Sequence record: NZ_CP064874.1
Direction: 5' to 3' (one strand)
Source of the DNA: a plasmid
DNA: 64,000 bases
Shown here: piece by piece, positions 35,036-55,564 of the stretch
Position numbering within the stretch: position 1 is the first letter of the stretch
How the letters are laid out: each line of letters opens with the position of its first letter
Notes under the pieces: model-generated
The model's input: the letters and a program-made list of their open reading frames with translations, nothing else
Told to the model about the DNA's origin: nothing
Databases searched by the model: none
Translations under genes and position numbers: made by a program

Positions 35036-35052
35036 GTGAATGTGACATTCAC
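35036..35052 (-). promoter_or_regulatory. 17-bp perfect palindrome GTGAATGTGACATTCAC (operator-like), copy 1
   Basis: Direct read of the sequence. Confidence 0.7.
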
Positions 35053-35117
35053 TGACTATACGCCTGCATGCCCGGTGGGGGAACCCCCGTGCATGGTGTT
35101 GCTGCAGGCCCTTCTTG

Positions 35118-35154
35118 CTGGGTATAGGCCGATGTTGGGGGTGTTCGCGGACAT
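35118..35154 (-). promoter_or_regulatory. repeat family 2 copy
   Basis: ctgggtataggccgatgttgggggtgttcgcggacat. Confidence 0.5.
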
Positions 35155-35177
35155 CCGGGTTGTGGAGGTCGGTGCGG

Positions 35178-35618
35178 TCAGTCGTCGGGGCCGCTGTCGG
35201 GTTCGTCGCACGCGCCGCTGTTGATGGCGTCGACGCCGACTTTCGTGAGCACCCAGCCGGGTTCGACCCACGAGTAGCGTTCGATCAGTCCTCGCCTGCG
35301 GAGGGACTGGATGGTGCCGCCGGGGATCCCCAGGCCTGTCGTGTCGAGGTAGCTGGCGCCGCCGGAGAGTGATCGGCCATCGGCGATCATCCGCATGGTG
35401 ACTCGTTGGGACCAGTTCAGCGGCCGGGCGTTCTGGCGGCGCTTGAGCTCGGTGGTGGCGCATCGCGTGGCGTCGGCCTCGGTGGTGTGATGGTGGGCGC
35501 AGCGCCACACTCGTTCGCCGGACTGGTGGGTGTCTTTGTCGGCGACGTCGTCGATGACGCCGCGCAGCGCGCCTCCTGGGCGTCCGGGAGTCCATGATGA
35601 CCAGCTGGCGGTCAGCAT
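35178..35618 (-). CDS. hypothetical protein (146 aa)
   Basis: Overlaps the stop of 35612..35803 (operon). Confidence 0.45.
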   Translation of the reverse strand: MLTASWSSWTPGRPGGALRGVIDDVADKDTHQSGERVWRCAHHHTTEADATRCATTELKRRQNARPLNWSQRVTMRMIADGRSLSGGASYLDTTGLGIPGGTIQSLRRRGLIERYSWVEPGWVLTKVGVDAINSGACDEPDSGPDD

Positions 35619-35803
35619 GCGATCGCCGCGGTCAGCTCGGGGGTGAGGATGCCGGCTTGCTGGTCTGCACGCACGGCTGCGCCGCAGTCTTTGCAGGTCA
35701 CGTCGGCGATCGTGGTGGCTGCCGATGACGTCTTGCGTCCGCAGTAGCCGCGTTGCCCTGTGGCGGTGGCAAGGCAGGTTCGGGCGGTGCTTTCCTGTGT
35801 CAT
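35612..35803 (-). CDS. small zinc-ribbon protein (~63 aa; CGRK...CKDCG)
   Basis: Start MTQEST after GAGGA; ATGA overlap with the upstream gene. Confidence 0.45.
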   Translation of the reverse strand: MTQESTARTCLATATGQRGYCGRKTSSAATTIADVTCKDCGAAVRADQQAGILTPELTAAIAC

Positions 35804-36063
35804 TGGTGGGGCCTGTCCTCGCAGCTCGAGCAGAGGTCGGGGGTGCCGTCGTCGTTGACCCACCAGCAGCCGCCGAAGCATGCTCGCTCGTCGGTGCAGC
35901 CGCAGACGTGACAGGTGCGCACGAGCTCGAGGAGCACCTGGTCGATTCCGCCTTGGGCGCCGAGCTCCGCGCCGAGCGCGGTGACTCGTGAGATCACGTC
36001 CTCGGGTGCGGTGCTGGGCACTTGGATCGTGATGGTGGTGGTAGGTGTGGTGCGGTCGTTCAT
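35800..36063 (-). CDS. small Cys-rich protein (87 aa; CHVCGC...CFGGC...CSSC)
   Basis: Intact ORF, operonic. Confidence 0.45.
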   Translation of the reverse strand: MNDRTTPTTTITIQVPSTAPEDVISRVTALGAELGAQGGIDQVLLELVRTCHVCGCTDERACFGGCWWVNDDGTPDLCSSCEDRPHQ

Positions 36064-36085
36064 GGTGGCCTTCCTGATGTTGGTG

Positions 36086-37381
36086 TCAGGCGGAGCGGGC
36101 GAACTTCGTGGCTGCGGTAGTCGGCTGCAGGGCGAGCAGTCGTCGTGCTTTCTCTGCTTCGATCTCGCGGGGCAGCTCTCCTTTGCGGGTGCCTGAGCGG
36201 CCGTAGAGGAGGATCTTCACGCCGGTCTTGGACACCTGTGCCTGGTCGGCGATCTCGAGGACGGTCATGCCGGATGCCATGAGCTGGCGGACGTGCTGTC
36301 GGATCGGCTCGGCGGGCACGCGCGGGGCCTGCGGGGCGATGCCGGCCTCCCGGCGTCGGCGCCGTTCCTCAGCCAGTGACGCATCGGCGCACGAGATCTC
36401 CGCGGGGCAGTGGTCGCGGTCCTTGCAGCCGAGCTGGTAGCCGTAGGCGGTCCCGTGGTGCTCGAGCGGGATGCTCTGCGCCTTCCGGTTCGCCATCCAC
36501 TGCCGGTGATACTCGCGGCCGGCTTCGATGCACTCGGGGCGGTCGCAGCCGCGCGCTCGGCATGCGTTGGTGCCGTGCGGCTGCAGCTGCCTCGGCTGCG
36601 AGGTTCGGGCAGCACGCGCGGTCCGAAGTCGCGGTGTGCGTGGCCTGGCCGGTGGGGAAGGGCGATCGTGGTCTGCGAGGGCGTCGACGGCGGACTGGTG
36701 CCGCAGGGTTGCCTCCTGCAGCGCTCTCTCGATCACCCCTCCGACGGAGAGGCCGGTGCCGGCGGCGATGGTGGCCGTCTTGAGGGTCTCGGCCGCGGCG
36801 CGCAGCTGGCCGCGCAGCTCTCGGTGGTCTTTGCGCCACTGCTCGAGCTCGTCGACGTGACGATCGAGGTCCGCTTCGTAGCCGTCGAGTGCCTCTGAGA
36901 ACGCGCTGGCGAGCTCTGCGGGGAGCTTCTCGGCGTCGCTGCGTGCCTTGTCGAGCCACTGGTAGCCGGGATGGGTGCGCGGCCGCGGCGTCGACGGGCG
37001 AGGCCGTGCGGTCGGCGCCGGCGCCGGCGCCTCCTTCGGCATGCGCGGGGGTTTGGGTGTGTTGGCGCGCGCCGGCTTCGGTTTGGGGGTCGGCTTGGGT
37101 CGACGGGGGCGTGTGGCTTCGACGGCGGCACGGCGCTCTTCTCGAGCGGCGATCTTGTCCCGTTGCCGCGACTCGGCACGCGCGGCCTCGTCGCGCTCGA
37201 GGATCTCGGCGAGCGGTGTGCCGGCGTCGATGAGCTTCGCGAAGGAGTAGTCGCCCACGTAGCGGGTGTGGACGGTGCGGCAGGGGATCAGCGCGGGGCA
37301 CGCGGCAGTGCGGCATCCGTGGCGGTACCCGTCCGGGGTACCGTGCGGGAAGCGGTCGTCGAGGAGATCGAGGGTGGACAT
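36086..37381 (-). CDS. phage-type DNA-binding protein with two HGxxxGYxxGCxxxxCP cysteine motifs, Pro/basic linker and C-terminal HTH
   Basis: HGTPDGYRHGCRTAACP and HGTAYGYQLGCKDRDHCP, then MTVLEIADQAQVSKTGVKILLYGRSG. Confidence 0.55.
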   Translation of the reverse strand: MSTLDLLDDRFPHGTPDGYRHGCRTAACPALIPCRTVHTRYVGDYSFAKLIDAGTPLAEILERDEAARAESRQRDKIAAREERRAAVEATRPRRPKPTPKPKPARANTPKPPRMPKEAPAPAPTARPRPSTPRPRTHPGYQWLDKARSDAEKLPAELASAFSEALDGYEADLDRHVDELEQWRKDHRELRGQLRAAAETLKTATIAAGTGLSVGGVIERALQEATLRHQSAVDALADHDRPSPPARPRTPRLRTARAARTSQPRQLQPHGTNACRARGCDRPECIEAGREYHRQWMANRKAQSIPLEHHGTAYGYQLGCKDRDHCPAEISCADASLAEERRRRREAGIAPQAPRVPAEPIRQHVRQLMASGMTVLEIADQAQVSKTGVKILLYGRSGTRKGELPREIEAEKARRLLALQPTTAATKFARSA

Positions 37382-37392
37382 GACGGTCGACC

Positions 37393-37854
37393 TCAGTAGC
37401 GGAGGAGCTTCGCGGTGACCAGGGTCAACAGTGCTGCCCGCTGCGGGGCGTTGAGCCGTGAGAAGTGCGCACCAACGGTGTCTAGCGCCGTGGTGAACTC
37501 CTCGGGCAGACCGTCGAGATCCCGCTTGATGCGCCGCTCATTCGCATCCCGCTGCGCCTCCGCTTGATCGGCCACGCGCCACTCGTCGGTGGCGGCTGTG
37601 TCGGCGTATCTGCCGGTGATCCGTGGCGTGTACTGTCCGCCCGTGTAGAGCACGGTCGGCTCGCCGGCGGGGCGGGTGATCGTGATGATCGCGCCCACCG
37701 GAGCCGACGTGTACGGCTTGTACGAGCCGAGCTCCTTGCTGGTGAGCTCACCGTCGTCGAGCGTCCGATACCAGTGCGCGAGCTTTCCATTACTCGCGGC
37801 CTTGCGGCCGACGTAGACGACTTCCTCGGTGACGGTCGCTGCCTCTTCGCTCAT
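37393..37854 (-). CDS. cassette gene: hypothetical protein (153 aa)
   Basis: ATG 32 bp downstream of palindrome 37887-37903; RBS GAGGAG. Confidence 0.55.
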   Translation of the reverse strand: MSEEAATVTEEVVYVGRKAASNGKLAHWYRTLDDGELTSKELGSYKPYTSAPVGAIITITRPAGEPTVLYTGGQYTPRITGRYADTAATDEWRVADQAEAQRDANERRIKRDLDGLPEEFTTALDTVGAHFSRLNAPQRAALLTLVTAKLLRY

Positions 37855-37886
37855 TGGGGAGCACTCCTCGGATCAGTAAGAAAGTA

Positions 37887-37903
37887 GTGAATGTGACATT
37901 CAC
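37887..37903 (-). promoter_or_regulatory. palindrome GTGAATGTGACATTCAC, copy 2
   Basis: Direct read. Confidence 0.7.
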
Positions 37904-37908
37904 TGATA

Positions 37909-38118
37909 CTAGAGAGGTTGCAGGGTCTTCGCAACCGTCGTCGTCGTCACGTCGACGGGCCGCTCTCGACGCTCGTTGACGGGAATCATCCGCACGGGCT
38001 CGTCGCGGGGAGCTTCGATCTCGAAGCCGCACGCGCCGCAGCTGTGCAGCCCGATCCCGTCGACGTCGTCGGAGGGGATGTACATGGTGGTCGGCTCTTC
38101 GCACATAAGGCAGCGCAT
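37909..38118 (-). CDS. small zinc-ribbon protein (69 aa; CLMC...CGAC)
   Basis: Internal ATG of ORF 37909..38421 with GGAGA RBS. Confidence 0.45.
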   Translation of the reverse strand: MRCLMCEEPTTMYIPSDDVDGIGLHSCGACGFEIEAPRDEPVRMIPVNERRERPVDVTTTTVAKTLQPL

Positions 38119-38138
38119 GGTGATCTCCGTTCGCGTGG

Positions 38139-38603
38139 TCAGGCGCTTGTTGCCGGGGTGATCGGTTGGACGGTGGCGGAGTAGCCGCGGTGGGAACCCC
38201 AGGCGGCGGCGATGCGGTCGGCGACGTCGCGGTCCTCTCCGAGGTACGGGCGGTATCGCTTGCCGCGGGGGTCTGTGATGACGACCTGGACGACGCCGGA
38301 TGGCTCGCGCACGGTGACTCTGGCTGCGGGGATCGGATACGCCTGGACGTGGCCGGCGATGATGAAGATCGGGTACAGGTCGCGTGCGAGCTCGGGGGTG
38401 CGGAACACGTCGTGAACCCATGCCGTGATGGCGAGCGCGCCGGCGGGGCTGAATCCGATGAGTCGTGCGGGGAGCTGCTCGAGCCCGGCGCGCACGAAGT
38501 AGTGCTCGTCGACGAGGATCGGCGTCGGTGGGAGCAGAGACTTCTCGTCGTGGGCGGGGTAGATGGTCAGGCTGGTGCGGCTGTTCATGAGGCGCTCGTT
38601 CAT
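38139..38603 (-). CDS. hypothetical protein (154 aa)
   Basis: Internal ATG (MNERLMNS) of ORF 38139..39338; ATGA overlap with the upstream gene. Confidence 0.45.
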   Translation of the reverse strand: MNERLMNSRTSLTIYPAHDEKSLLPPTPILVDEHYFVRAGLEQLPARLIGFSPAGALAITAWVHDVFRTPELARDLYPIFIIAGHVQAYPIPAARVTVREPSGVVQVVITDPRGKRYRPYLGEDRDVADRIAAAWGSHRGYSATVQPITPATSA

Positions 38604-39370
38604 GCGGTGCGGCGGATGCCGGCGGCGATGATGTGTGCCTTGGTGGGCCGGGAGTAGAAGCCGAAGCTGTCGTCGTCGTCGGAAGCGGAGACGGTGGCGG
38701 TGAACGCGACGACGTCGCCGCGGGCGGCGGTGGAGATCTCGGAGGGCTTGGTGCCCCATACGCGCCAGCCTTCGCCCTGGACGAGGATCTTGACGGTGAT
38801 TCCCCACTGAGTGTCGGTGGTCTTGGTCGCGAGGATCTCGCCCTGGATGAGGGTGCGCCCGGTGGGGACGGGGCGGCGCGCGGCCAGCTCGAGCTCGTAC
38901 TGCTCGAGCAGCTCGTGGGCGGTGCGGACCTCGTCGTCGTCGAGGGTGCCGGTGTAGTCCTCGAGGGAGTCGAGGATGTAGCCGATCTTCTCGCGCAGCG
39001 GGTTGCCCTCCCGGATGCTCAGATGAGCTTCGGTGAGCTGGTCGCGGAGGCCGGGGTGCTCGGCCTCGAAGGCGGCGCGGCGGGCGGTGATCGCCCGTGT
39101 TGTGTCGATGTGCTCGGCGTGTGCCTTCGCGTGGGCTCGTGCGGTGGCGCGGGCGCTGCTGACGAGGCGGCTGCGGGTGCCGGTGCCGTGGCAGTCGAAG
39201 CAGATCGGGCGCCCGTGGCCATCGGTGAAGTGGGTGGGCCCGGTGTACAGGCCGGTGCCGATGCACTTGCCGCAGGTGTCGGTGATCCGCTCGGAGCCCT
39301 TGCGGCCGGGGAAGGGGTCGACGTAGAAGTCGTGCCAATCGGCCGGTGCGGTGGTGTCGATGCTGTCCAT
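38600..39370 (-). CDS. hypothetical protein with DnaJ-like CxxCxGxG zinc finger (256 aa; start MDSIDTT)
   Basis: CGKCIGTG...CFDCHGTG; RBS GGAGGA. Repeat-2 copy lies just upstream. Confidence 0.5.
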   Translation of the reverse strand: MDSIDTTAPADWHDFYVDPFPGRKGSERITDTCGKCIGTGLYTGPTHFTDGHGRPICFDCHGTGTRSRLVSSARATARAHAKAHAEHIDTTRAITARRAAFEAEHPGLRDQLTEAHLSIREGNPLREKIGYILDSLEDYTGTLDDDEVRTAHELLEQYELELAARRPVPTGRTLIQGEILATKTTDTQWGITVKILVQGEGWRVWGTKPSEISTAARGDVVAFTATVSASDDDDSFGFYSRPTKAHIIAAGIRRTA

Positions 39371-39390
39371 GGGATCCTCCGGTTCGTCTG

Positions 39391-39425
39391 TGGGTATAGG
39401 CCGCGGATCGTTCTCTTCGCGGACA
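39391..39425 (-). promoter_or_regulatory. repeat family 2 copy
   Basis: tgggtataggccgcggatcgttctcttcgcggacat. Confidence 0.5.
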
Positions 39426-39636
39426 TGAAGGGGAAGGGGCGGGGGCGGCTGTGTCACGGAGCCGCCCCCGCGGCGGCGACCTGGTTGGGAGGACGGCGGG
39501 TCGCCGGGAGGGACATGGCGGCGAGCGCGGCGAGCGCTCGTCAGGCTGCGGTGTGGCGCCTGTCCCTGGGAGGGGAACGGCGTTGCGCGGTTCCCCTGGT
39601 TGTGGGTCTGTGGGTTCTCCCTCTACTCAGTTAGTA

Positions 39637-39653
39637 GTGAATGTGACATTTAC
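39637..39653 (-). promoter_or_regulatory. palindrome variant GTGAATGTGACATTTAC, copy 3; leader without a start codon (empty/degenerate cassette)
   Basis: Leader and RBS (GAGGGAGAACCCACAG) are conserved, but the ATG position reads ACAG. No ORF follows before the hairpin at ~39440-39470. Confidence 0.6.
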
Positions 39654-39710
39654 TAGGGTAGGTGTTTCCTGCCCGGAGGTCAAGTGGCGATCTGGCCTGC
39701 ATCTGCTGGA

Positions 39711-39842
39711 TCAGCTCGCGGGTGCGCGGTCCTCGTCGGCGGGGCCGAGCCCTTCCCAAAGGTCGGGGCGGTTCTCGTGGATCCAGGCGCAGATGGTGGC
39801 CCAGTCCGCGACGCCGGACGGGTGCTGGTTGATGGTTGCCAT
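39711..39842 (-). CDS. cassette gene: 43-aa protein MATINQHPSGVADWATICAWIHENRPDLWEGLGPADEDRAPAS (below ORF-track cutoff)
   Basis: ATG at 39842 directly after GGGAGGACACC, 24 bp from palindrome 39867-39883. Confidence 0.45.
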   Translation of the reverse strand: MATINQHPSGVADWATICAWIHENRPDLWEGLGPADEDRAPAS

Positions 39843-39866
39843 GGTGTCCTCCCGGATCGTCGGCTA

Positions 39867-39883
39867 GTGAATGTGACATTCAC
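39867..39883 (-). promoter_or_regulatory. palindrome GTGAATGTGACATTCAC, copy 4
   Basis: Direct read. Confidence 0.7.
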
Positions 39884-39969
39884 AGCTTAGGGAGGGGGTC
39901 GGACATCGCTGGGGGACATCGCGAGTGCGTCACTGAGGGCGGCGGAGTTGCCGCCGCCCTCAGCTCGGT

Positions 39970-40215
39970 CTATTGCATCTGTCTGGCGATGCCGGCTGCG
40001 GCGCTGACGACTCGACGGGGGATGCCGAAGATTTCGGGAGGGCCGGACGCGACGCCGTTGCTCCACACCTTTCCGACGCGCCATCCGATGGGGAACCGGA
40101 GGGTGGTCGTGGTGTAGGTGGCCCCGGATTCGAGGGGGCCGGCGATCACACCGAGGGGGCTGACCTCGACGTACCACCGGCCAACGGTCTTGGAGCCGCC
40201 TTCGTGGCCGTTCAT
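39970..40215 (-). CDS. cassette gene 2 of a pair: hypothetical protein (81 aa; start MNGHEGG)
   Basis: ATGA-coupled to 40212..40499. Confidence 0.45.
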   Translation of the reverse strand: MNGHEGGSKTVGRWYVEVSPLGVIAGPLESGATYTTTTLRFPIGWRVGKVWSNGVASGPPEIFGIPRRVVSAAAGIARQMQ

Positions 40216-40499
40216 GCGCCGGCGTTCTCGAGCGGCTGCGCGACGTGTGCCGGCAGGGCGCGTAGCGCGGCGCGGGTCACCCACTCGTCGGCGGTCTCGT
40301 CGAACTGGCCGAGCTCGATGATCGGCCCCTGGTCGTCGTGGTGGATGAACAGCGACCCGTACTCGCGGCCGTCGACGTACAGGTAGATGTTCCCGGCGTA
40401 GGCGCCGATCTCGCCGTTGTCGAACAGCCCGTCGCGGGCGTCGGGTTCACCCAGGTCGATCTCTTCCTGGCGGTGCCCGAAGTTGAGGGTGAGCTTCAT
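40212..40499 (-). CDS. cassette gene: hypothetical acidic protein (95 aa; start MKLTLNF)
   Basis: ATG follows GGAGGACACC, 20 bp from palindrome 40520-40536. Confidence 0.55.
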   Translation of the reverse strand: MKLTLNFGHRQEEIDLGEPDARDGLFDNGEIGAYAGNIYLYVDGREYGSLFIHHDDQGPIIELGQFDETADEWVTRAALRALPAHVAQPLENAGA

Positions 40500-40519
40500 G
40501 GTGTCCTCCGTAGTAGGTG

Positions 40520-40536
40520 GTGAATGTGACATTCAT
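40520..40536 (-). promoter_or_regulatory. palindrome variant GTGAATGTGACATTCAT, copy 5
   Basis: Direct read. Confidence 0.65.
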
Positions 40537-40587
40537 AGGCTACGGTGGGGGTCCGACATTGCGCCGGCGAGCGAGCGATGCACTCTG

Positions 40588-40621
40588 TGTCCGCGAAGCA
40601 GCCGGGATGCGGCCTATACCC
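40588..40621 (+). promoter_or_regulatory. repeat family 2 copy in opposite orientation, upstream of the plus-strand gene at 40659
   Basis: tgtccgcgaagcagccgggatgcggcctataccc is the reverse complement of the other copies. Confidence 0.5.
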
Positions 40622-40658
40622 CTCAGACGGGCACAAGCCCGCGACGAGAGGAGGAGCG

Positions 40659-40919
40659 ATGCCGAGTCGCGAAGAGGTAGACGACGTCCTGCAGCGCGTG
40701 GGGCTGGCGGCGATCTCGTACTACCCAGAGATTCACATCGACGAGCCGGACTACACCGTCGACACCGACGTTGATTGGTGCCTCGAGCCGGTGACCGACC
40801 TGACCGATGAGCAACGCGCCCCGCTGCGAGAGGCGGTCGGCCTGGCGATCACCAACCCGACAGCTCACCGGTACGCCCTGTTCCAGACGTTGCTCGAGCT
40901 GGCGCCAGCGGAGTCGTAA
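40659..40919 (+). CDS. hypothetical acidic protein (86 aa)
   Basis: ATG after GAGGAGGAG; on the opposite strand to the array. Confidence 0.5.
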   Translation: MPSREEVDDVLQRVGLAAISYYPEIHIDEPDYTVDTDVDWCLEPVTDLTDEQRAPLREAVGLAITNPTAHRYALFQTLLELAPAES

Positions 40920-48674: not shown

Positions 48675-48691
48675 GTGAATGTGACATTTAC
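48675..48691 (-). promoter_or_regulatory. palindrome variant GTGAATGTGACATTTAC, copy 11
   Basis: Direct read. Confidence 0.65.
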
Positions 48692-48775
48692 AGCCTAGGG
48701 AGGGGGTCAGACATTGGCCGCGGCGAGCGCGACGGTGCCCCGCCGGATGATCCCGGCGGGGCACCGATTAGAGCG

Positions 48776-49354
48776 TCAGCGGCGGATGCCGCGCGCCCAG
48801 TAGAGCGCCCACGGCAGGTCGAACCGTGCCGCGATGCCGTCGTGGGCGATGTGCAGCGCGCTCGCCGCGTACCGGCGCGTGGGGAGCGGCTGGATGCGCT
48901 GCGGGTGCACGTCTCGCTCGGGAGCCTGGTGCGGGGTGCTGCCGGTGAGGATGCGGCGGGCCGTGCCCTGGTAGGCGCGGTCGGCGTAGCCGGTGATGAC
49001 CTGGAAGGCCACGAAGCCGGGCCCGCCCCACGGGGCGGCGTACTCCGTGTCGAACAGCCTCCACGTCTCGGTGATCGTCCGCGCGGCCGGATCGAAGCTG
49101 CGAGTGTGGATGACCGCCTCCGGGTCGTCCGGCCGCTCGGCCTCGATCGCGTCCAGCGCCGTGCCCAGCCGGTCGAGCACGCGGCGAGCGCGGGCGATCT
49201 CATCGCGGCTGCTGAGCGCGTCGTGGTCGCCGCGGTCGATCGAGTGCACCCACTCATCGCAGGCCCACGCGGTGAGCGGGAACGTCTCAAGGCATGCCCA
49301 GTCGCGGAACGCCTCGACGATCGGGTTGCGCCGGGTCGCGCTCGCCGCGGTCAC
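48776..49354 (-). CDS. cassette gene 2 of a pair: hypothetical protein (192 aa, GTG start overlapping upstream stop)
   Basis: GTGA overlap with 49351..49794. Confidence 0.5.
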   Translation of the reverse strand: MTAASATRRNPIVEAFRDWACLETFPLTAWACDEWVHSIDRGDHDALSSRDEIARARRVLDRLGTALDAIEAERPDDPEAVIHTRSFDPAARTITETWRLFDTEYAAPWGGPGFVAFQVITGYADRAYQGTARRILTGSTPHQAPERDVHPQRIQPLPTRRYAASALHIAHDGIAARFDLPWALYWARGIRR

Positions 49355-49794
49355 GGTGCCACCACCCGCAGGGAGCGCAGCCAGTCGACCTCTTGGGCGT
49401 CGAGAACATGCCCGGTCGTGATCCAGTCGGCGGCATCGTCGGTGCCGTCGAGATCGCGGAGCGTGTACACCTGGCGGGGGGCGTCGTCGTGTTCGGGGTT
49501 GCCGTCGTAGATCGTGCCGTCGTTGAGGAACACCCGGATGCGGCCGGTGCTCTCGGTGGTGTCGATCTGCGCGACGGCCGCGCCGTCGATGAGGGACACG
49601 TACCCGTGCACGTCGATGCCTGCGGCCTCGCCTGCGTGGTCGGCGACGGCCCGCTCGGCGGCGCCGGTCGCGAGCGCGCGGATCGCGTCGGCGTCCACGT
49701 CGCCCTGGCCGAGCGCTTGGGTGAGCCCGTCGATGTCCTCGTAGTTGAGCGCGATCGTCTCGGCGACGATCTCGCTGATCGGTTTGGTTGCCAT
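49351..49794 (-). CDS. cassette gene: highly acidic protein (147 aa)
   Basis: ATG after GGGAGGACACC, 24 bp from palindrome 49819-49835. Confidence 0.55.
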   Translation of the reverse strand: MATKPISEIVAETIALNYEDIDGLTQALGQGDVDADAIRALATGAAERAVADHAGEAAGIDVHGYVSLIDGAAVAQIDTTESTGRIRVFLNDGTIYDGNPEHDDAPRQVYTLRDLDGTDDAADWITTGHVLDAQEVDWLRSLRVVAP

Positions 49795-49818
49795 GGTGTC
49801 CTCCCGGATCGTTGGCTA

Positions 49819-49835
49819 GTGAATGTGACGTTCAC
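49819..49835 (-). promoter_or_regulatory. palindrome variant GTGAATGTGACGTTCAC, copy 12
   Basis: Direct read. Confidence 0.65.
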
Positions 49836-49907
49836 AGCCTAGGGAGGGGGTCGGACATCGGCGCGCGCTCGCCGCGAACGTGGGGCGCTCGCCGATGTCC
49901 GGGCGGG

Positions 49908-50453
49908 CTACATCTGCCCGACATCCCGCGCCATGCGCTCGCGGAACGCCGCGCACGCCGCGTCGATGACGGCGGCACGATAGGTGCTGCTCTCGCCCGC
50001 GGGGAGGGTCGCGAGCGCGTCTCGGAGGGCGGTGCGGGTGCTGTAGTGCAGAGCCTCGGATGCCTTGTGCGCCGAGCGGGTGCTGATGTCGTGGGTGATC
50101 CGCTCGATGATCTCCGGGACGGTGAGTGGGGGCAGCTCGAAGCGGTAGCCGGCGAGGTCGGCCAGGATGATCGCGCGCTGCCGATCGGTGAGCGGGGTGC
50201 CGTACCCGCTGCTGGGGTACAGCTCGAGGTCTCCGCTGCGGCCAGCCCGGATGTTCACGCGGACGTAGGGACGCTCGGCGCGGCCGATGCGCACGTTGCT
50301 GATGCGCTCGCCGCTGTCGGGGTCGATCGGGCAGAGGTCGGCGCGCGGCTCGCCGAGTGTGGGGCCGGGCTCGTGACTGCGGGCGTCGGAGACCTCCCAG
50401 GTCAGTCCGGCCGCGGTGAGTCGGTCGCCGAAGGTGAGGGGTGCGGTTGCCAT
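49908..50453 (-). CDS. cassette gene: hypothetical protein (181 aa)
   Basis: ATG after GGGAGGACACC, 24 bp from palindrome 50478-50494. Confidence 0.55.
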   Translation of the reverse strand: MATAPLTFGDRLTAAGLTWEVSDARSHEPGPTLGEPRADLCPIDPDSGERISNVRIGRAERPYVRVNIRAGRSGDLELYPSSGYGTPLTDRQRAIILADLAGYRFELPPLTVPEIIERITHDISTRSAHKASEALHYSTRTALRDALATLPAGESSTYRAAVIDAACAAFRERMARDVGQM

Positions 50454-50477
50454 GGTGTCCTCCCGGATCGTTGGCTA

Positions 50478-50494
50478 GTGAATGTGACGTTCAC
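50478..50494 (-). promoter_or_regulatory. palindrome variant GTGAATGTGACGTTCAC, copy 13
   Basis: Direct read. Confidence 0.65.
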
Positions 50495-50587
50495 AGCTTA
50501 CGGGTGGGGTCGGACACTGCGGCGAGCGCGGCAGCGCCCCGCCGGTCAGTTCCGGCGGGGCGCTGCGGGAGGGGTCGTGCTCGTCGC

Positions 50588-50776
50588 CTACTGGGGGGAG
50601 AGGGCGTTGGTGACCTGAGTCTTGATCTCTTCGGCGGCGAGGATCATCGCGCCGTCCTTGTGTGACTCGCCGTAGGCCGCGATCACGCCCGCGATCGCGC
50701 CCCATTCGGCTGCGGCCAGGCTCACGGGGATGGGCTTCGGCTGTGATCCTGCGGGCGATCCGCTCTCGCTGGTCAT
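50588..50776 (-). CDS. cassette gene: small hydrophobic/Ala-rich protein (62 aa)
   Basis: ATG after CAGGAGGACACC; palindrome 50800-50816. Confidence 0.5.
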   Translation of the reverse strand: MTSESGSPAGSQPKPIPVSLAAAEWGAIAGVIAAYGESHKDGAMILAAEEIKTQVTNALSPQ

Positions 50777-50799
50777 GGTGTCCTCCTGGGTGTCAGGTA

Positions 50800-50816
50800 G
50801 TGAATGTGATGTTCAC
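50800..50816 (-). promoter_or_regulatory. palindrome variant GTGAATGTGATGTTCAC, copy 14
   Basis: Direct read. Confidence 0.6.
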
Positions 50817-50895
50817 AGTCTAGGGCGGGGGTCGGACATTGCGGCGAGCGCGACAGCGCCCCGCCGGTAGATCCCGGCGGGGCGCTGTCGGTGGG

Positions 50896-51108
50896 TCAGT
50901 AGTCCTCGTCGGTGCGGGCGAGGGTGTCGATGATCCGCAGTCCGTTGTGGAGGGGGATGGTGACGGTGGACAGGAGCGTGTAGCCCTGTGCGCCGTAGGC
51001 GTTCAGGTCGTCGTCGCGCTGCTGGCGAGCGCGGTTGCTGGCGATCTCGCCCTCCGCCTCGGTGTACTGGCGGGTGTCGATGGTGATGAATCGAGTGCGG
51101 TTTGCCAT
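50896..51108 (-). CDS. cassette gene: small protein (70 aa)
   Basis: ATG after GGGAGGACACC; palindrome 51133-51149. Confidence 0.5.
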   Translation of the reverse strand: MANRTRFITIDTRQYTEAEGEIASNRARQQRDDDLNAYGAQGYTLLSTVTIPLHNGLRIIDTLARTDEDY

Positions 51109-51132
51109 GGTGTCCTCCCGGATCGTTGGCTA

Positions 51133-51149
51133 GTGAATGTGACATTCAC
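51133..51149 (-). promoter_or_regulatory. palindrome GTGAATGTGACATTCAC, copy 15
   Basis: Direct read. Confidence 0.7.
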
Positions 51150-51184
51150 AGCCTACGGGTGGCCTCCGACATTGGAGCTGCCCA

Positions 51185-51219
51185 CGGGTATAGGCCTCGG
51201 TTTCGGGGGTTCGCAGACA
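51185..51219 (-). promoter_or_regulatory. repeat family 2 copy
   Basis: cgggtataggcctcggtttcgggggttcgcagacat. Confidence 0.45.
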
Positions 51220-51272
51220 TCGCAGGGCGGTGCCCCGCGACCGTCGCCGCGAGGCACCACACGAGGGGCTGG

Positions 51273-51545
51273 CTATGCGCCGGGGCACTCGGTGTCGATG
51301 TCGTCCTGGTCGAGCGGCAACAGTCCGCACGCCTGGCAGGTCGTCGTCCCGGTGAAGCGGCCGCTCTGCCACTGGTGGGCGAGCGGCTCGGCGGGTGCGT
51401 CCTCGTCGTCGGTGTCCATGGTCGCGGTCGCGCCGCAGTCCAGGCACCGGGCGGCGACGTCGCCGTTGAGGGTGACGACGACGCCGGGGACGCCGGAGAG
51501 CCATTCGATGTTGGCGTGGTCGCAGTCGGTAGTGGTGGTGGCCAT
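51273..51545 (-). CDS. cassette gene: zinc-ribbon acidic protein (90 aa; CxxC...CxxC)
   Basis: ATG after GGGAGGACATC; palindrome 51570-51586. Confidence 0.5.
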   Translation of the reverse strand: MATTTTDCDHANIEWLSGVPGVVVTLNGDVAARCLDCGATATMDTDDEDAPAEPLAHQWQSGRFTGTTTCQACGLLPLDQDDIDTECPGA

Positions 51546-51569
51546 GATGTCCTCCCGGAACGCTGGCTA

Positions 51570-51586
51570 GTGAATGTGACATTCAC
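51570..51586 (-). promoter_or_regulatory. palindrome GTGAATGTGACATTCAC, copy 16
   Basis: Direct read. Confidence 0.7.
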
Positions 51587-51667
51587 AGTCTAGAGAGGGG
51601 ATCGGACATCGGCGGCGAGCGCACGCGACGGTGCCCTGCCGGTCGTCCGGCGGGGCACCGCGTGGGG

Positions 51668-52066
51668 TCAGGCCGCGTCGAGCGGCGTCCAGTCCCGTTC
51701 GTGGGCGGGGGTGTAGTCGATCAGCGCCGCGAGGCGGTCGCGTGCGGCCTGTAGCGCCTCGATCTCGGTGTCGTTGCTGTCGCCCTCGGCGGCGGCGAAA
51801 GTGTCCTCGATCAGACCGGCGATCTCCTTCTGTGCCGCCTCGTCGATGAGGGTGAGGCGGGCGATCTCGCCGTCCGGGTAGCGGGCATCCAGCGCCGCGG
51901 CGTCCTGGTAGTCGAAGGCCCACTGCTCGCCGAGGATCGCGAACGCCGCGGCGATGTCGCGGCCGCGGTCGCCGGTGCTGATCGCGACGTAGCCGCGGTT
52001 CAGGCCGGTGCCGACGTGCGGGTGCAGGTCGGCGTGGTCGGGGCCGAAGGTGATGTAGGTGGTCAT
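51668..52066 (-). CDS. cassette gene: acidic protein (132 aa)
   Basis: ATG after GGGAGGACACC; palindrome 52091-52107. Confidence 0.55.
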   Translation of the reverse strand: MTTYITFGPDHADLHPHVGTGLNRGYVAISTGDRGRDIAAAFAILGEQWAFDYQDAAALDARYPDGEIARLTLIDEAAQKEIAGLIEDTFAAAEGDSNDTEIEALQAARDRLAALIDYTPAHERDWTPLDAA

Positions 52067-52090
52067 GGTGTCCTCCCGGATCGGTTGGTA

Positions 52091-52107
52091 GTGAATGTGA
52101 CGTTCAC
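52091..52107 (-). promoter_or_regulatory. palindrome variant GTGAATGTGACGTTCAC, copy 17
   Basis: Direct read. Confidence 0.65.
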
Positions 52108-52211
52108 AGTCTAGGGCGGGGGTCGGACATCGCCGCGGGGTGTCGGTCGTGGGGTGCGTGGTGCGTGAGCGCCCCAGCCGAGGCGTAGGGCGCTCACGTC
52201 GTGGGGTGTGG

Positions 52212-52610
52212 CTACGCCTTCCAGGTGCCTTCCCAGCCCTCGGGGAGACGCACGCCGTGCTCGCCGTGCTCGTCGGTCTGGTGCAGGTACACGAGCACGT
52301 CGCCGGGGTCGGGGTCGGCCTCGTACTGCGGCACGGTGCGCTCGATGGTGTTGATCTGGCCGACGCTGTTGTAGCGCACGTCCACGTCGATCGCGCGCAG
52401 GTAGCCGTCCTCGACGTTGACGTGCTGATCGCAGCGCGGGCACCACAGCACGACGCGCTCGCCGTAGTCGGTCGGCTCGTCGAGCTCGACGATGCGCAGC
52501 GCGGGGAAATCGGCTGCCTCGATCTCGTGCATGACGCTCCACAGCCGGTCGATCAGGTCGTCGGCAGGGATGCGGGGAGCGGCCGCGGCCGCGGGTTCGG
52601 TGGTGGTCAT
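52212..52610 (-). CDS. cassette gene: protein with CPRC motif (132 aa)
   Basis: ATG after CAGGAGGACACA. The upstream leader is a deletion remnant (52611-52650). Confidence 0.5.
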   Translation of the reverse strand: MTTTEPAAAAAPRIPADDLIDRLWSVMHEIEAADFPALRIVELDEPTDYGERVVLWCPRCDQHVNVEDGYLRAIDVDVRYNSVGQINTIERTVPQYEADPDPGDVLVYLHQTDEHGEHGVRLPEGWEGTWKA

Positions 52611-52650
52611 TGTGTCCTCCTGGGAACGGTGAAGGCCTGCGGCGAGCGCG
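52611..52650 (-). repeat. leader remnant: conserved leader with the palindrome-to-GGCCT segment deleted
   Basis: cctgggaacggtgaa|ggcctgcggcgagcgcggg aligns to ccttggaacgtaggcggtgaatgtgacattcacaggctacggggggcctccgacattgctgcggcgagcgcgg minus ~35 bp. Confidence 0.5.
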
Positions 52651-52768
52651 GGCGGGGATTAGAACTCGAGGTGCTCCCGCCGAGGGGAGGGGCGTGTAGC
52701 CGGCTCCCCTCGGGTGGGTGGTGCTCGCCGCCGCCGGGGTAGGTGTGCACCCGGCGGCGGCGAGGGGG

Positions 52769-53152
52769 TCAGACGGCTTCGACCAGCCCAGGGCTGACGC
52801 GCCAGCCGTTGGCGAGCGTGTACGACTTGGGGTTGGTGCGGACGATGAGCGTCTCGACTCCGGCCAGCCCGTCACGGGTGGTGCGCGGGTTGGCGACGAT
52901 GCGCACGCGGGTTCCGGGGATCAGGCTCGGCAGCGCGGCCGCGGTGGCTTGCAGGGCAGCGGCGAGCGCGTCGTCGCTGTGCCCGGTCGGCTCGACGGTG
53001 GCGGTGCGGGCGAGGGTGTACACCTTGCCGGGTTCGGTGAGGGCTGCGATCTTCGCCTTGGTGCGGGCGAAGTCGATCAGCACGTACTCGGTGCCGCGGA
53101 AGCGGAACGTGTCGCCGGGGGTGCGGGTGATGAGGGTGGTGGTGTCGGTCAT
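52769..53152 (-). CDS. cassette gene: hypothetical protein (127 aa; start MTDTTTL)
   Basis: ATG after AAGGAGGACGCC; palindrome 53177-53193. Confidence 0.55.
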   Translation of the reverse strand: MTDTTTLITRTPGDTFRFRGTEYVLIDFARTKAKIAALTEPGKVYTLARTATVEPTGHSDDALAAALQATAAALPSLIPGTRVRIVANPRTTRDGLAGVETLIVRTNPKSYTLANGWRVSPGLVEAV

Positions 53153-53176
53153 GGCGTCCTCCTTGGACTCTCGACG

Positions 53177-53193
53177 GTGAATGTGACATTCAC
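53177..53193 (-). promoter_or_regulatory. palindrome GTGAATGTGACATTCAC, copy 18
   Basis: Direct read. Confidence 0.7.
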
Positions 53194-53261
53194 AGGCTAC
53201 GGGTGGCCTCCGACATTGGGCGGGGCGGGCGGCGCGGTCTGCGCGCCCGCCCCGGCGTGGG

Positions 53262-53840
53262 TCACTGGGCGGCGATCGCCGCGGTGATCTCGGCGGTGAC
53301 CCGCTCGCGCTTGGCGTCGGCATCGCGCCCCGGCTCGAAGTGACCGAACGCGGTCAGGTACGCCTCGATCTGCCCGCGCAGGTACTCGGTGTTGCTGGCG
53401 TCGGCGTTGAGGCCGATGATCGCGTAGCGCGCTGCGCTCGCCGCGGCCCGCCAGCCGCTCTGCGTGAGGCCGTGGGGGTCGCCCTCGGGGAGCGAGTAGG
53501 GCTGCTCGATCTGGCCGTCGCGCGCGGTGTACTTGGTGACGGTGCGCTCGGTGACCACGACGGCATCCAGATAGTCGGGGTCGCCCTGCCCGCCGAGGGG
53601 CACCCACACCTGGGGGTCGTCGTCCGGGTGGTCGGCGTCGATGCGAGCGAGCAGGGCGGGCATTGCGGGGTCGAGGGTGAACGGGTCGCTGAGGCTGTAG
53701 TCGTCCCAGGCCTGGCGCAGCTCGTCCGGCTCGATGGTCGTCCATCCCTCGTCGAACTCGGCGCGCAGCGGAGCGTGGAAGCGGATCGCGCGCTCGACGG
53801 CTGCGCGGATGTCGTGGACGTTGTTGATGGTCTCGGTCAT
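53262..53840 (-). CDS. cassette gene: hypothetical acidic protein (192 aa)
   Basis: ATG after GGGAGGACTCC; palindrome 53865-53881. Confidence 0.55.
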   Translation of the reverse strand: MTETINNVHDIRAAVERAIRFHAPLRAEFDEGWTTIEPDELRQAWDDYSLSDPFTLDPAMPALLARIDADHPDDDPQVWVPLGGQGDPDYLDAVVVTERTVTKYTARDGQIEQPYSLPEGDPHGLTQSGWRAAASAARYAIIGLNADASNTEYLRGQIEAYLTAFGHFEPGRDADAKRERVTAEITAAIAAQ

Positions 53841-53864
53841 GGAGTCCTCCCGGAACGATTGCTA

Positions 53865-53881
53865 GTGAATGTGACATTCAT
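53865..53881 (-). promoter_or_regulatory. palindrome variant GTGAATGTGACATTCAT, copy 19
   Basis: Direct read. Confidence 0.65.
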
Positions 53882-53974
53882 AGGCTACGGGTGGCCTCCG
53901 ACATCGCGCGGGGACATCGCGAGTGCGTCACGGGCGAGTGCCCGCCGGGGTGACCGGCGGGCACTCGGTGACGC

Positions 53975-54985
53975 TCAGCGGGCGAACGCCCAATCCGGGA
54001 GCACGGCTGCCGAGCAGAGGGTCGCGACGATCTGGCTCATGCCGTGGTCGGGGTCGATCGCGAGGGCGCGGTCGGTGTAGACGGTGGCGTGAGTGGATCG
54101 GCCCAGCGCCCAGGACAGCCAGGCGGCGGCGGCGAGCAGGTTGGGGCGCTCCTGGTCGTCGGCGTAGGCGGCAAGGTGGCGCACGAGCGCGAGTCCCGCC
54201 GTCAGCCGGTCGGCGTCGGGGCGGTCGCCCTGTCCGTAGAGGGTGCGGGCGATGCTCTCGGGGACGGGTGCGCCCATGATCGAGTGGCCGATCTGCGCGG
54301 CCAGGGCACGGGTGCCGTTGCCGCGGTCGGTGGCCCACTGGATGAGGGCCACGTCACGCCACAGCGGGATGCCGATGCCGGTGAGCAGGATCGCAGCCTG
54401 GCGGGTGTCGAGGTCGGCGGGGTCACCGGTCAGGGCGTCCTCCGCGACGGCGACGAAGTCCGCGAGGGCATCGTCGTCCATCCGCGCGGCCGCGAACGCG
54501 ATCCGGGCGGCACGCGCCGGGTCGGCGTCGGGGATGCTCGCCCCGGCGGTCTGGGATGCTGCGACCTTCTCGCGCAGCGCGTCCGGGGTCGCGATCTCGG
54601 CGACGGGGCGCGGTGCCTCGCCGGTCAGGTGGCTGCCGTAGCCGTCGCTGGCGACGTAGAGCACGTCCACCAGGTGCAGTCCCTGCCGGTCGGCGACATC
54701 GGCGATCTGCTGGCCGAGATCGCGGGTGCTGTCGGCGTCCTCGGCGGCGTAGATCACGGCGGCTACCCCGGTCACGCGCGGCACTCGGCAGACCAGCCCG
54801 AGGCCGGTGTGCGCGAGCGTCGCGGCATCCGCGTCGAGGTCGAGTCGCATCGCCCCGATCGTGCGCGACGCCTCGAAGGGCACGAGCACGAGCGAGTCCT
54901 GCGGGGTGAAGCCGAGCAGCGCGGGCACGAGGCCGAGGAAGTCGCGCGGGGTGCCCGCCTTGATGGTGGTCGGTGTGGTGGCCAT
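53975..54985 (-). CDS. cassette gene: 336-aa protein, possibly DUF4192-like
   Basis: N-terminus GTPRDFLGLVPALLGFTPQDSLVLVPF...RTIGAMRLDL resembles the DUF4192 start (recall-based, low certainty). ATG after GGGAGGACACC; palindrome 55010-55026. Confidence 0.5.
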   Translation of the reverse strand: MATTPTTIKAGTPRDFLGLVPALLGFTPQDSLVLVPFEASRTIGAMRLDLDADAATLAHTGLGLVCRVPRVTGVAAVIYAAEDADSTRDLGQQIADVADRQGLHLVDVLYVASDGYGSHLTGEAPRPVAEIATPDALREKVAASQTAGASIPDADPARAARIAFAAARMDDDALADFVAVAEDALTGDPADLDTRQAAILLTGIGIPLWRDVALIQWATDRGNGTRALAAQIGHSIMGAPVPESIARTLYGQGDRPDADRLTAGLALVRHLAAYADDQERPNLLAAAAWLSWALGRSTHATVYTDRALAIDPDHGMSQIVATLCSAAVLPDWAFAR

Positions 54986-55009
54986 GGTGTCCTCCCGGAA
55001 CGTTGGCTA

Positions 55010-55026
55010 GTGAATGTGACATTTAC
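55010..55026 (-). promoter_or_regulatory. palindrome variant GTGAATGTGACATTTAC, copy 20 (outermost leader; array boundary ~55050)
   Basis: Leader homology stops after ..ccgacattgg at ~55051. Confidence 0.65.
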
Positions 55027-55046
55027 AGGCTACGGGAGGCCTCCGA

Positions 55047-55564
55047 CATTGGTCGATGCACGCCAGGAGCCGACTCCCGACTGGCTCGTCGAAGGAGCAA
55101 CCCTCGGAGAGCTCGCCGGGAAGATCGACGTTCCCGCCCAGGCGCTGGCCGAGACGGTCGCGCGATTCAACGAGCACGCCGCCCGTGGGGAGGATCCGGA
55201 CTTCCACCGCGGTGCGAGCGCGTACGACCGCTACTGGGGAGACGAACAGAACCCGTATCCCAATCCCAGCCTCGCACCGCTCGAGCAAGGCCCCTACTAC
55301 GCTCTCGCCGTGGTGAACGGCTGCTTCGGCACCAGCGGAGGGATCGCCACCGACGGCCTCGGAAGGGTCCTCGACGCAGACGGCGATGCCATACGCGGCC
55401 TGTTTGCGGTCGGCAACGCCTCCGAGAACGCCTTCGCCGCCGGCTACCCCGGCGCCGGCGCCACGCTCGGTCCGATCATGACCATGGCCTACCTTCTCGG
55501 GCGTACCGCCAGCGGCGCGTCGATCGGCGACCTGAGCCTTGCCGACGGAGCCGGGGCACGATGA
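55047..55564 (+). pseudogene. FAD-binding dehydrogenase (3-ketosteroid-delta1-dehydrogenase/fumarate-reductase flavoprotein-like), C-terminal ~170 aa only
   Basis: ..DWLVEGATLGELAGKIDVPAQALAETVARFNEHAARGEDPDFHRGASAYDRYWGD...GLFAVGNAS... is the C-terminal region of KstD-like flavoproteins. The upstream part of the same frame is leader sequence (VNVTFTGYGRPPTL), so the N-terminal ~400 aa are absent. Confidence 0.6.

Follow-up and report, generated by a model that had tools for sequence, protein, structure and literature searches.

Why would a plasmid place one and the same short DNA element, always in one orientation, before some twenty small transcription units, and what would read it? Here, we analyzed a 64,000-nucleotide stretch of a plasmid (sequence record NZ_CP064874.1; the whole stretch is called the window, and positions refer to it unless another replicon is named), in which such an array lies between 35 and 55 kb. 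The initial annotation had described it as a module of terminator, promoter, operator, and ribosome-binding site (RBS) repeated in one orientation, and our analysis supports this description. The array is very probably a plasmid establishment regulon built from promoter-operator modules. With less confidence, we consider it probable that the array serves a large catabolic and conjugative Microbacterium plasmid of the MobF type as its variable establishment (leading-type, probably anti-defense) region, in which the host activator PafBC and a repressor would act on the same promoters.

A repeated palindrome next to the -10 box

The core of each module is a 17-bp dyad, GTGAATGT(C/G)ACATTCAC (full palindrome, GTGAATGTCACATTCAC), of which the 64-kb window holds 19 copies at two mismatches or fewer versus 0.02 expected from shuffled sequences; a 20th copy (47381-47397) has three mismatches. 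All 20 are on the minus strand between 35036 and 55026, and the right arm, TCACATTCAC, is confined to this strand and interval, with exactly 20 occurrences in the whole window. The count of 20 copies plus one deletion remnant (at ~52611-52700, with the flanks retained and the promoter and palindrome deleted) given in the initial annotation is confirmed. Two further details of that description did not hold: a copy with a 2-bp insertion was not found, the odd copy being the one with three substitutions, and the symmetry of the palindrome, described as perfect, is imperfect in 10 of the 20 copies.

Alignment of the 20 copies indicated that the right (distal) arm is invariant in all of them, that variation is confined to the promoter-proximal arm, and that there are no compensatory changes between the arms; such one-sided variation without compensation favors a protein-binding site over a selected hairpin. 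Seventeen of the palindromes end 20 to 24 nt 5' of an ATG preceded by GGAGGA (24 nt, n = 13; 23 nt, n = 1; 20 nt, n = 3), and the leader alignment bears out the conserved leader and RBS noted earlier. The fixed distance to the start codon holds for these 17 units but not for the three divergent ones (39637, 37887, and 35036), in which the palindrome-ATG distance and the downstream sequence are different. In every unit, the palindrome begins 0 to 2 nt past the -10 box, which places the dyad over the expected transcription start, where repressors classically bind. A single DNA-binding regulator over about 20 transcription units, as had been suggested, is in our judgment the most economical reading.

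A LexA box, which is GAAC-N4-GTTC, was rejected as the identity of the palindrome, which reads GAAT-N5-ATTC. In the units at 45853-45891 and 46827-46865, the -10 region (CGTAGCCT) is partly complementary to the sequence behind the palindrome, CGCCTACG, the dyad thereby reaching ~33 bp; in most other units, the palindrome is instead flanked by a direct repeat of TAGCC.

Plasmid setting of the array

Two parts of the window, 31981-41512 and 43176-55066, are 99.8% and 98.7% identical to positions 90205-99734 and 135271-147158, respectively, of pYJNG, a 148.6-kb circular plasmid of Microbacterium sp. YJN-G. The annotation of pYJNG lists a mobF relaxase, an FtsK/SpoIIIE protein (type IV coupling protein, T4CP), a conjugal transfer protein, and a VirB4-like ATPase, together with an M23 peptidase, two Tad pilus loci, ParA, and a 1673-aa CHC2 primase. 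In the window the block is almost unbroken, and in pYJNG a 35-kb insertion of cargo and insertion sequence (IS) elements divides it; the two ends of the window block (31981 and 55066) are cut by catabolic cargo, the flanks encoding a Rieske oxygenase, IclR, hydrolases, and a SnoaL-like protein. Thirty-six of the 41 block genes in the window are on one strand.

With 25 palindromes at three mismatches or fewer (23 at two or fewer), pYJNG gives a fuller picture of the regulon. Apart from one degenerate copy on the plus strand, they all lie in a single block ahead of genes on the minus strand, among them the ArdC, DUF3846, and SSB-like genes. Along the minus strand, the block begins with an operon behind a sigma-A-type promoter and palindrome (first gene, 236-aa HTH_17-like), a gene for an SOS-response-associated peptidase (SRAP), and 15 PafBC-type cassettes; after the cargo insertion come two more PafBC-type cassettes and six sigma-A-type units (SSB-like, DUF3846, ArdC-like, and others), and the tail abuts the region of the FtsK/T4CP and MobF relaxase genes, a position suggestive of a leading region. 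Of this regulon, the window contains the 17 units of the PafBC type and, of the sigma-A type, the first three.

The gene at 34714-35013 encodes a protein with a predicted SSB-type OB fold: the AlphaFold2 model has a pLDDT of 85, and the top Foldseek matches in the PDB are actinobacterial SSBs (3eiv and 1ue6; TM 0.75-0.77, probability 1.0). In pYJNG and in a metagenomic relative (L108), the SSB operon continues into DUF3846, Mom-like, and ArdC (ArdcN plus M78) genes. Mom-like and DUF3846 genes suit a leading or establishment setting. SSB and ArdC are typical of leading and establishment regions (PMC11541004, PMC3937220, PMC8708921). With this SSB-fold gene and its DUF3846/Mom-like/ArdC continuation, the block looks like an establishment (leading-type) region, and the likeness to anti-defense leading regions drawn in the initial annotation fits both the MobF relaxase, T4CP, and VirB4-like ATPase of the plasmid and the SSB-fold, ArdC, Mom-like, and DUF3846 genes of the regulon.

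The exact palindrome is present in many Microbacterium assemblies, in multiple copies on a 148.9-kb contig of NPDC076768, on several H83 contigs, and on contigs, probably misbinned, of proteobacterial and verrucomicrobial metagenome-assembled genomes (MAGs); in PLSDB, the leader was found only in pYJNG, plus one weak match in a plasmid of Microbacterium sp. No. 7. Contigs from MAGs assigned to Proteobacteria, Verrucomicrobia, Croceicoccus, Polyangiaceae, Burkholderiales, and Flavipsychrobacter are 84-100% identical to the block (Table 1) and are probably misbinned Microbacterium plasmid contigs.

Seventeen leaders match the PafBC promoter consensus

In 17 of the 20 leaders, the palindrome is preceded by TGTC(G/C/T)G, 10 bases, and TA(G/A)NCT, for example TGTCGG-AGGCCTCCCG-TAGCCT. 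The pattern TGTCNG-N10-TANNNT has 18 matches in the window versus 0.39 expected, and 17 of these are the leaders, each abutting a palindrome. These 17 lack a -35 box, the hexamers 16 to 18 nt 5' of the -10 box being GCAGCA, GCGGCC, and similar. The remaining three have -35/-10 pairs at 17 nt (Table 1), i.e., every leader without the TGTC element carries a -35 box instead.

PafBC is a WYL-domain activator that adapts the sigma-A holoenzyme to promoters without a -35 box. The in vivo promoter consensus is tGTCgg(N10)tA(N3)T, with a strict GTC at about -26 (-23 to -28), a canonical -10, and no -35; PafBC sits between the DNA and sigma-A region 4, which has been termed sigma adaptation, and it is found in almost every actinobacterial species, with examples from Micrococcales (PMC8635444). 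It is activated by binding single-stranded DNA (ssDNA), the source of which has been argued to be local (PMC11804915). The "-35 region" of the leaders matches this consensus, so the module is not wholly unprecedented: the initial annotation, which recognized no described system in it, missed that this part fits a published promoter.

The case for a PafBC-type element is strengthened by this alternation of TGTC element and -35 box and by two findings in related elements. Divergent leaders in H83 and NPDC076768 have kept TGTCGG and TANNNT with an altered spacer (one reads TGTCGGTG). The SRAP gene of pYJNG (MCGRF...) is preceded on the minus strand, at 1467-1488, by TGTCTG-N10-TACGCT followed by 6 nt and the ATG, i.e., a PafBC-type motif of leaderless geometry with no palindrome. 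In ~30 independent related loci, the palindrome lies 0 to 2 nt after TTGACN-17/18-TANNNT, for example TTGACG-18-TAGAGT-a (ArdC-like), TTGACA-17-TAGGGT-a, and TTGACG-17-TAGCAT-ca (DUF3846), and the promoter class tracks the gene family across independent elements. The PafBC-type motif has no copy in a 21-kb Microbacterium chromosomal stretch around a DUF4192 paralogue, and a full-text literature search returned no paper linking PafBC with conjugative plasmids. A second palindrome-free copy of the motif lies at 85105 in pYJNG (TGTCAGTG...TAAGGT).

The alternative that survives best, which we nevertheless regard as unlikely, is that TGTCNGA is an extra half-site (AATGTC) for the palindrome repressor, or the target of a plasmid-specific activator, and that the -10 box alone drives these promoters. 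The palindrome has GTGAATGTC as its left half, and (A/G)ATGTC stands at -26 in most leaders; the A before TGTC is more conserved than the PafBC consensus demands, and two leaders have a second ATGTC upstream. However, tGTCgg(N10)tA(N3)T stands in the exact register in 17 of 17 leaders, and these are the leaders without a -35 box, whereas TTGNNN at 17 nt is found in every operator leader that lacks TGTC. Also, a palindrome-free motif precedes a DNA-damage gene in pYJNG, and a lone direct half-site 27 bp off would be a poor target for a dimeric protein. We put PafBC involvement in the cassette promoters, as predicted from these motifs, at about an even chance, leaning slightly toward it.

Candidate regulators of the operator

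No candidate for the operator-binding regulator is encoded in the window. Elsewhere, a gene for a 236-aa HTH_17-like protein lies directly behind a promoter and palindrome in six of six independent elements, and at the block head in pYJNG (WP_193599363, 3161-3871) and in the 148.9-kb NPDC076768 contig. This placement behind the palindrome in six elements makes it the best candidate for a plasmid-borne, autoregulated repressor, an assignment from gene position that we regard as possible rather than probable. A GntR gene, which in pYJNG belongs to an operator-bearing operon, was demoted as a repressor candidate; it is absent or truncated in the other elements.

Outside plasmids, the palindrome was found only at the promoters of a ~105-aa winged helix-turn-helix (wHTH) protein gene with a weak Rrf2-like match. 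A perfect copy overlaps this promoter in 12 of 12 non-plasmid Microbacterium loci, which adjoin Tn7-like tnsABC or defense-like (E1/nucleotidyltransferase) genes in the chromosomes. Could such a host or island regulator read the operator, with the array controlled by, or in conflict with, resident mobile elements? The 12 loci speak for it, as does one contig that holds both array units and the wHTH gene. Against it, no homologue was found in complete pYJNG or in the window (tblastn and HMM search, six frames), by which the chromosomal wHTH was rejected as the plasmid's own repressor, yet pYJNG retains 25 operators; islands with the wHTH gene are not carried by all strains, and the autoregulated plasmid HTH candidate is there in six of six elements. 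We consider this alternative still less likely than the half-site one. The shared operator on Tn7-like and defense islands hints at regulatory cross-talk between mobile elements.

Hairpins, single-strand folding, and the remaining alternatives

The shared terminator that the initial annotation placed after most cassettes is an overstatement. The identical hairpin, GCCCCGCCGG-N6-CCGGCGGGGC, occurs six times (five exact copies and one with one mismatch), one of them between convergent genes. A perfect GC hairpin (12-17 bp) lies upstream in nine of the 20 units, about three more units have an imperfect one, and the others have none. None of the unit hairpins has a T-tail, and the terminator scan found no meaningful T-tail terminators.

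A further alternative is that these are single-strand promoters of the Frpo kind, each leader folding back on itself in the transferred strand so as to restore a promoter in duplex form. The genes are unidirectional, hairpins and a palindrome are at hand, and the ssDNA fold of one unit is more stable than that of shuffled sequences (z = -5.6). However, the stable, paired parts are the terminator hairpin and the 17-bp palindrome. The stem reaches part of the -10 box in some units, and in those with the downstream CGCCTACG the -10 box is paired only as a short extension of the palindrome stem; TGTCNG is outside any hairpin, such as a long imperfect one, able to rebuild a duplex promoter. With the -26 and -10 elements not inside such a hairpin, the arrangement is unlike the Frpo architecture (PMC11541004), and this reading is very improbable.

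A dispersed repeat (REP or MITE-like), or a 5' stem-loop acting at the RNA level on mRNA stability, with no operator function, has an equally slight chance. As RNA, the element could fold into a hairpin (7-bp stem, 3-nt loop), and the whole ~110-bp unit is conserved as expected of a mobile repeat. However, the copies are one-stranded, and 17 of 20 stand 20 to 24 nt before an ATG; the remaining 44 kb of the window have no copy of the element, nor have 21 kb of Microbacterium chromosome around the DUF4192 paralogue. The predicted start lies inside the left arm, the one-sided variation lacks compensatory change, and an Rfam scan of 31-56 kb returned nothing.

The early region of a temperate actinophage with one repressor and many operators (phiC31 CIR or L5 stoperator type), which the initial annotation had raised on the formal likeness of many identical same-orientation dyads before small unknown genes, is rejected as practically negligible, with no exact palindrome in 2.9 million viral contigs (IMG/VR), only a 36-bp chance match when the array was compared by megablast with 50,697 phage records, a block free of structural, lysis, and integrase genes, and a plasmid context with relaxase and type IV secretion system genes.

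A proposed establishment program

How would these modules work together? Each cassette would be a self-contained unit with an optional GC-rich hairpin ending the previous unit, a promoter, an operator, a short 5' untranslated region (5'UTR) with GGAGGA, and one or two small open reading frames (ORFs). A fresh recipient would contain no plasmid repressor yet and abundant local ssDNA; host PafBC, activated by this ssDNA, would fire the 17 cassettes with RNA polymerase, and the sigma-A units (SSB and, further on, DUF3846, Mom-like, and ArdC) would fire constitutively. The plasmid repressor, possibly encoded at the far block head, would then accumulate and bind every operator, including that of its own promoter, turning the regulon off, and an established cell would hold the array under two locks, PafBC inactive and repressor bound. 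The cassette proteins are presumed to have anti-defense or establishment functions. In its general form, i.e., that actinobacterial conjugative plasmids use host PafBC as a trans-acting "entry detector" of ssDNA and that a late repressor closes the common +1 operator, we give the proposal a little less than an even chance.

Several points weigh against this proposal. PLSDB/MOB-suite types pYJNG as non-mobilizable, and we infer the label "leading region" from gene content. No cassette protein fits a known anti-defense family in Pfam and PHROG scans of 40 window proteins. All promoters and transcription starts are predicted from the DNA; an E. coli-type consensus scan gave no promoter in the window, such a scan being uninformative at this GC content, so that TANNNT logic and comparative data were used instead. 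The 17 leaders are copied from one ancestor, and their enrichment therefore counts as about one evolutionary event plus maintenance, with TGTC.G expected in the right register by chance about once in 1000. The presence of PafBC in Microbacterium and of the motif at its recA promoter is presumed from the literature, and AATGTC at -26, being also part of the operator half-site, could be an auxiliary repressor site instead. Finally, the window lacks the repressor, and in chromosomal islands the palindrome goes with another small protein, of the wHTH type.

Possible exchange of cassettes at the leaders

Between strains, the order of the shared units is conserved, and the arrays differ in the whole cassettes that they contain. 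In three strains, homology is interrupted at 42802-42808; one leader of H83 combines parts of window leaders u47381 and u50800 (breakpoint 47412/50771); NPDC076768 has an extra ~350 bp just upstream of u49819 (breakpoint 49863); and the cargo junction at 55066 is 18 nt upstream of a TGTC element. In total, nine of 32 internal homology breakpoints fall in leader intervals, which make up 8.4% of the region (binomial p ~0.001, the events not all being independent), giving some support to the idea of cassette exchange at leader boundaries. The near-identical leaders may serve as homology patches by which cassettes are gained, lost, and reshuffled between plasmids.

The PeSL cassettes of T4-type phages are alike in that a conserved early promoter and a stem-loop flank small ORFan genes that are shuffled in a modular way (PMC2839356, PMC4122927), and the changes at 42802-42808, 47412/50771, 49863, and 55066 are likewise bounded by the repeated promoter/terminator motif. 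PeSL cassettes differ from the array in being phage-borne, in lacking an operator, and in the phylum of their hosts.

Relation to known systems

Control of many establishment promoters by one repressor is already known. In R388 (IncW), the autoregulated plasmid repressor ArdK acts on several maintenance and establishment promoters (ardC, ssb, orf7, orf12, and orf14), and its regulon gives an expression burst (transcriptional overshoot) in new transconjugants (PMC3937220). In the p576/pLS20 clade II plasmids (EGeRS2), conserved regulatory sequences precede multiple variable establishment operons of mosaic content, and the repressor controls its own promoter and all others (PMC8708921). The present plasmid shares with them an operator at many establishment-gene promoters, with 20 sites in the window and 25 in pYJNG. 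The differences are considerable: R388 has five promoters, a proteobacterial host, and no host activator input, whereas at least 20 units with another operator, regulator, and phylum are found here; p576/pLS20 clade II is from Firmicutes, with a ribbon-helix-helix repressor, strong sigma-A promoters, far fewer units, and no ssDNA-sensing activator motif.

Many copies of a short site under one repressor are also the arrangement of the phiC31 CIR operators, the L5 stoperators, and the 17-bp palindromes of Cluster O, all phage systems; stoperators are asymmetric and lie inside transcription units. These have no sequence or gene-content relationship to the array.

With the PafBC (RecA-NDp) regulon, the leaders share TGTCgg, 10 nt, TANNNT, and the lack of a -35 box (PMC8635444), and thereby potentially the ssDNA-sensing activator (PMC11804915). 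Unlike the known regulon of chromosomal DNA-repair genes, the 17 putative copies here are on a plasmid before unknown small genes; the repressor-type dyad laid over +1 of each promoter is not a feature of described PafBC promoters. Unidirectional genes for SSB, Ard, and small unknown proteins, with expression soon after entry, make up the leading regions of F and ColIb-P9 with their anti-defense islands (PMC11541004); the array is alike in orientation and gene content, and early expression is proposed for it. Frpo is a cis-acting hairpin read on ssDNA, unlike the proposed route in which ssDNA would act in trans, via PafBC, on duplex promoters. What is new here, then, is the phylum, the scale and regularity (at least 20 units), and the packaging with terminators and a fixed 5'UTR, and also the predicted superposition of a repressor dyad on a promoter that depends on sigma adaptation by an ssDNA-activated host factor.

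Only in a handful of proteobacterial and Bacillus plasmids is early post-transfer expression understood, with nothing comparable described for high-GC Gram-positives, and a survey of leading regions makes no mention of Actinobacteria (PMC11541004). The array is a clean, testable system of about 20 near-identical modules with a candidate activator, PafBC, and a candidate repressor; its ~35 small proteins, lineage-restricted and for the most part acidic, are an obvious place to look for new anti-defense functions, and the module is a ready-made, tightly regulated expression cassette for Micrococcales. If the dependence on PafBC is true, it would link the actinobacterial DNA-damage response with plasmid establishment, provide a natural in vivo source of the "local ssDNA" left open by the 2025 PafBC study (PMC11804915), and give the first mobile element with a PafBC regulon, which through sigma adaptation would be functionally analogous to the Frpo ssDNA promoters.

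Encoded proteins and other features

Twenty-five of the 41 predicted block products have a pI below 5 and several have CxxC pairs, in agreement with the acidic and CxxC proteins noted initially. The Pfam and PHROG scans assigned only DUF4192, DUF6573, DUF6927, and DUF1643, with sub-threshold hints of DpnD/PcfM, Lar-like, and SSB. For the acidic 147-aa product of u49819, only seven homologue clusters were found among 5.8 billion proteins, too few for a reliable model. The coordinates of all features are collected in Table 1.

Table 1. Features of the array, its surroundings, and related loci (window coordinates; promoters and the genes assigned to them are predicted)
Feature	Position	Strand	Remarks
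Putative establishment/leading-type backbone block of unidirectional small genes	31981..55066	-	Catabolic and IS cargo on both sides
Leader u55010, PafBC-type, TGTCGG-N10-TAGCCT (55027-55048), operator 55010-55026, 5'UTR/RBS	54986..55048	-	Drives DUF4192 gene 53975-54985
Leader u53865, PafBC-type	53841..53903	-	Drives 53262-53840; hairpin upstream 53935-53967
Leader u53177, PafBC-type	53153..53215	-	Drives 52769-53152
Leader remnant, upstream "cgcgctcgccgcag" and downstream RBS retained, promoter/palindrome gone	52611..52700	-	Precedes 52212-52610
Leader u52091, PafBC-type	52067..52129	-	Drives 51668-52066
Leader u51570, PafBC-type	51546..51608	-	Drives 51273-51545 (two CxxC pairs; weak Lar-like zinc-ribbon match)
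Leader u51133, PafBC-type	51109..51171	-	Drives 50896-51108
Leader u50800, PafBC-type	50777..50838	-	Drives 50588-50776; hairpin upstream 50851-50890
Leader u50478, PafBC-type	50454..50516	-	Drives 49908-50453; hairpin upstream 50531-50566
Leader u49819, PafBC-type	49795..49857	-	Drives coupled pair 49351-49794 + 48776-49354
Leader u48675, PafBC-type	48651..48713	-	Drives coupled pair 48366-48650 + 48025-48369; hairpin upstream 48733-48766
Leader u47381, PafBC-type, palindrome with 3 mismatches	47357..47419	-	Drives DUF6573 gene 46925-47356
Leader u46827, PafBC-type	46803..46865	-	Drives 46428-46802 + 45952-46371; hairpin upstream 46884-46917
Leader u45853, PafBC-type	45829..45891	-	Drives 45313-45828 (weak DpnD/PcfM-like C-terminus); hairpin upstream 45910-45943
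Leader u45213, PafBC-type	45193..45251	-	Drives 44827-45192; hairpin upstream 45276-45304
Leader u42761, PafBC-type	42741..42799	-	Drives DUF6927 gene 42156-42740; upstream edge 42802-42808 is a recurrent strain-to-strain breakpoint
Leader u40520, PafBC-type	40500..40558	-	Drives 40212-40499 + 39970-40215
Leader u39867, PafBC-type	39843..39905	-	Drives 43-aa ORF 39711-39842; hairpin upstream 39933-39963
Leader u39637, sigma-A-type TTGACC-17-TACCCT + operator	39637..39683	-	Downstream genes 38600-39370, 38139-38588, 37909-38085
Leader u37887, TTGCGA-17-TAGTAT + operator	37887..37934	-	Drives 37393-37854, 36086-37381, 35800-36063, 35178-35618
Leader u35036, TTCCCC-17-TATAGT + operator	35036..35083	-	Drives SSB-fold gene and genes downstream
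99-aa protein, SSB-type OB fold (predicted), no acidic tail	34714..35013	-	AlphaFold2 and Foldseek
SSB operon tail: 84-, 146-, 94-, and 467/526-aa proteins	32095..34701	-	No Pfam match
Opposite-strand pair in array: 86-aa acidic and 393-aa basic protein, no leader	40659..42100	+	Weak HNH-like PHROG matches
Two opposite-strand genes (168 and 194 aa), no leader	43626..44790	+	Second not in related arrays
Opposite-strand DUF1643 gene	47467..47979	+	Convergent hairpin after it at 47990-48015
Cargo: ISL3 transposase	3146-4465
Cargo: rve integrase	6824-8038
Cargo: AbiEii toxin	10720-11838
Cargo: Eco57I-like methylase	19788-21197
Cargo: IclR regulators; Rieske oxygenase, aldolase, hydrolase, amidohydrolase, and LigA-type aromatic catabolism genes
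wHTH loci outside plasmids	L049:4379-4962; L031:2181-2640		Also L030, L037, L038, L047, L054, L058, L060, L067, L090, L032
MAG contigs 84-100% identical to the block			L011, L012, L016, L026, L032, L046, L051, L071, L079, L083, L093, L098

The rest of the window (1-31980 and 55067-64000) is a cargo mosaic. Leader u39637 has no start codon within 30 nt, and ~180-270 nt (39371-39636) separate it from the next gene; this region could correspond to an extended 5'UTR, or could encode a small RNA or a small ORF missed in the annotation. The DUF4192 protein (53975-54985) gave a confident model with a RadC/JAB-like N-terminal domain, lacking the conserved HxH metal motif, and a TPR-like C-terminal domain; paralogues of ~40% identity adjoin lysS and clpC in many Microbacterium chromosomes. 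The 393-aa protein (40919-42100, plus strand), encoded against the direction of the array, is very basic (pI 11) with weak HNH-like PHROG matches, and its pYJNG counterpart (99143-99730) is interrupted by an IS256 insertion.

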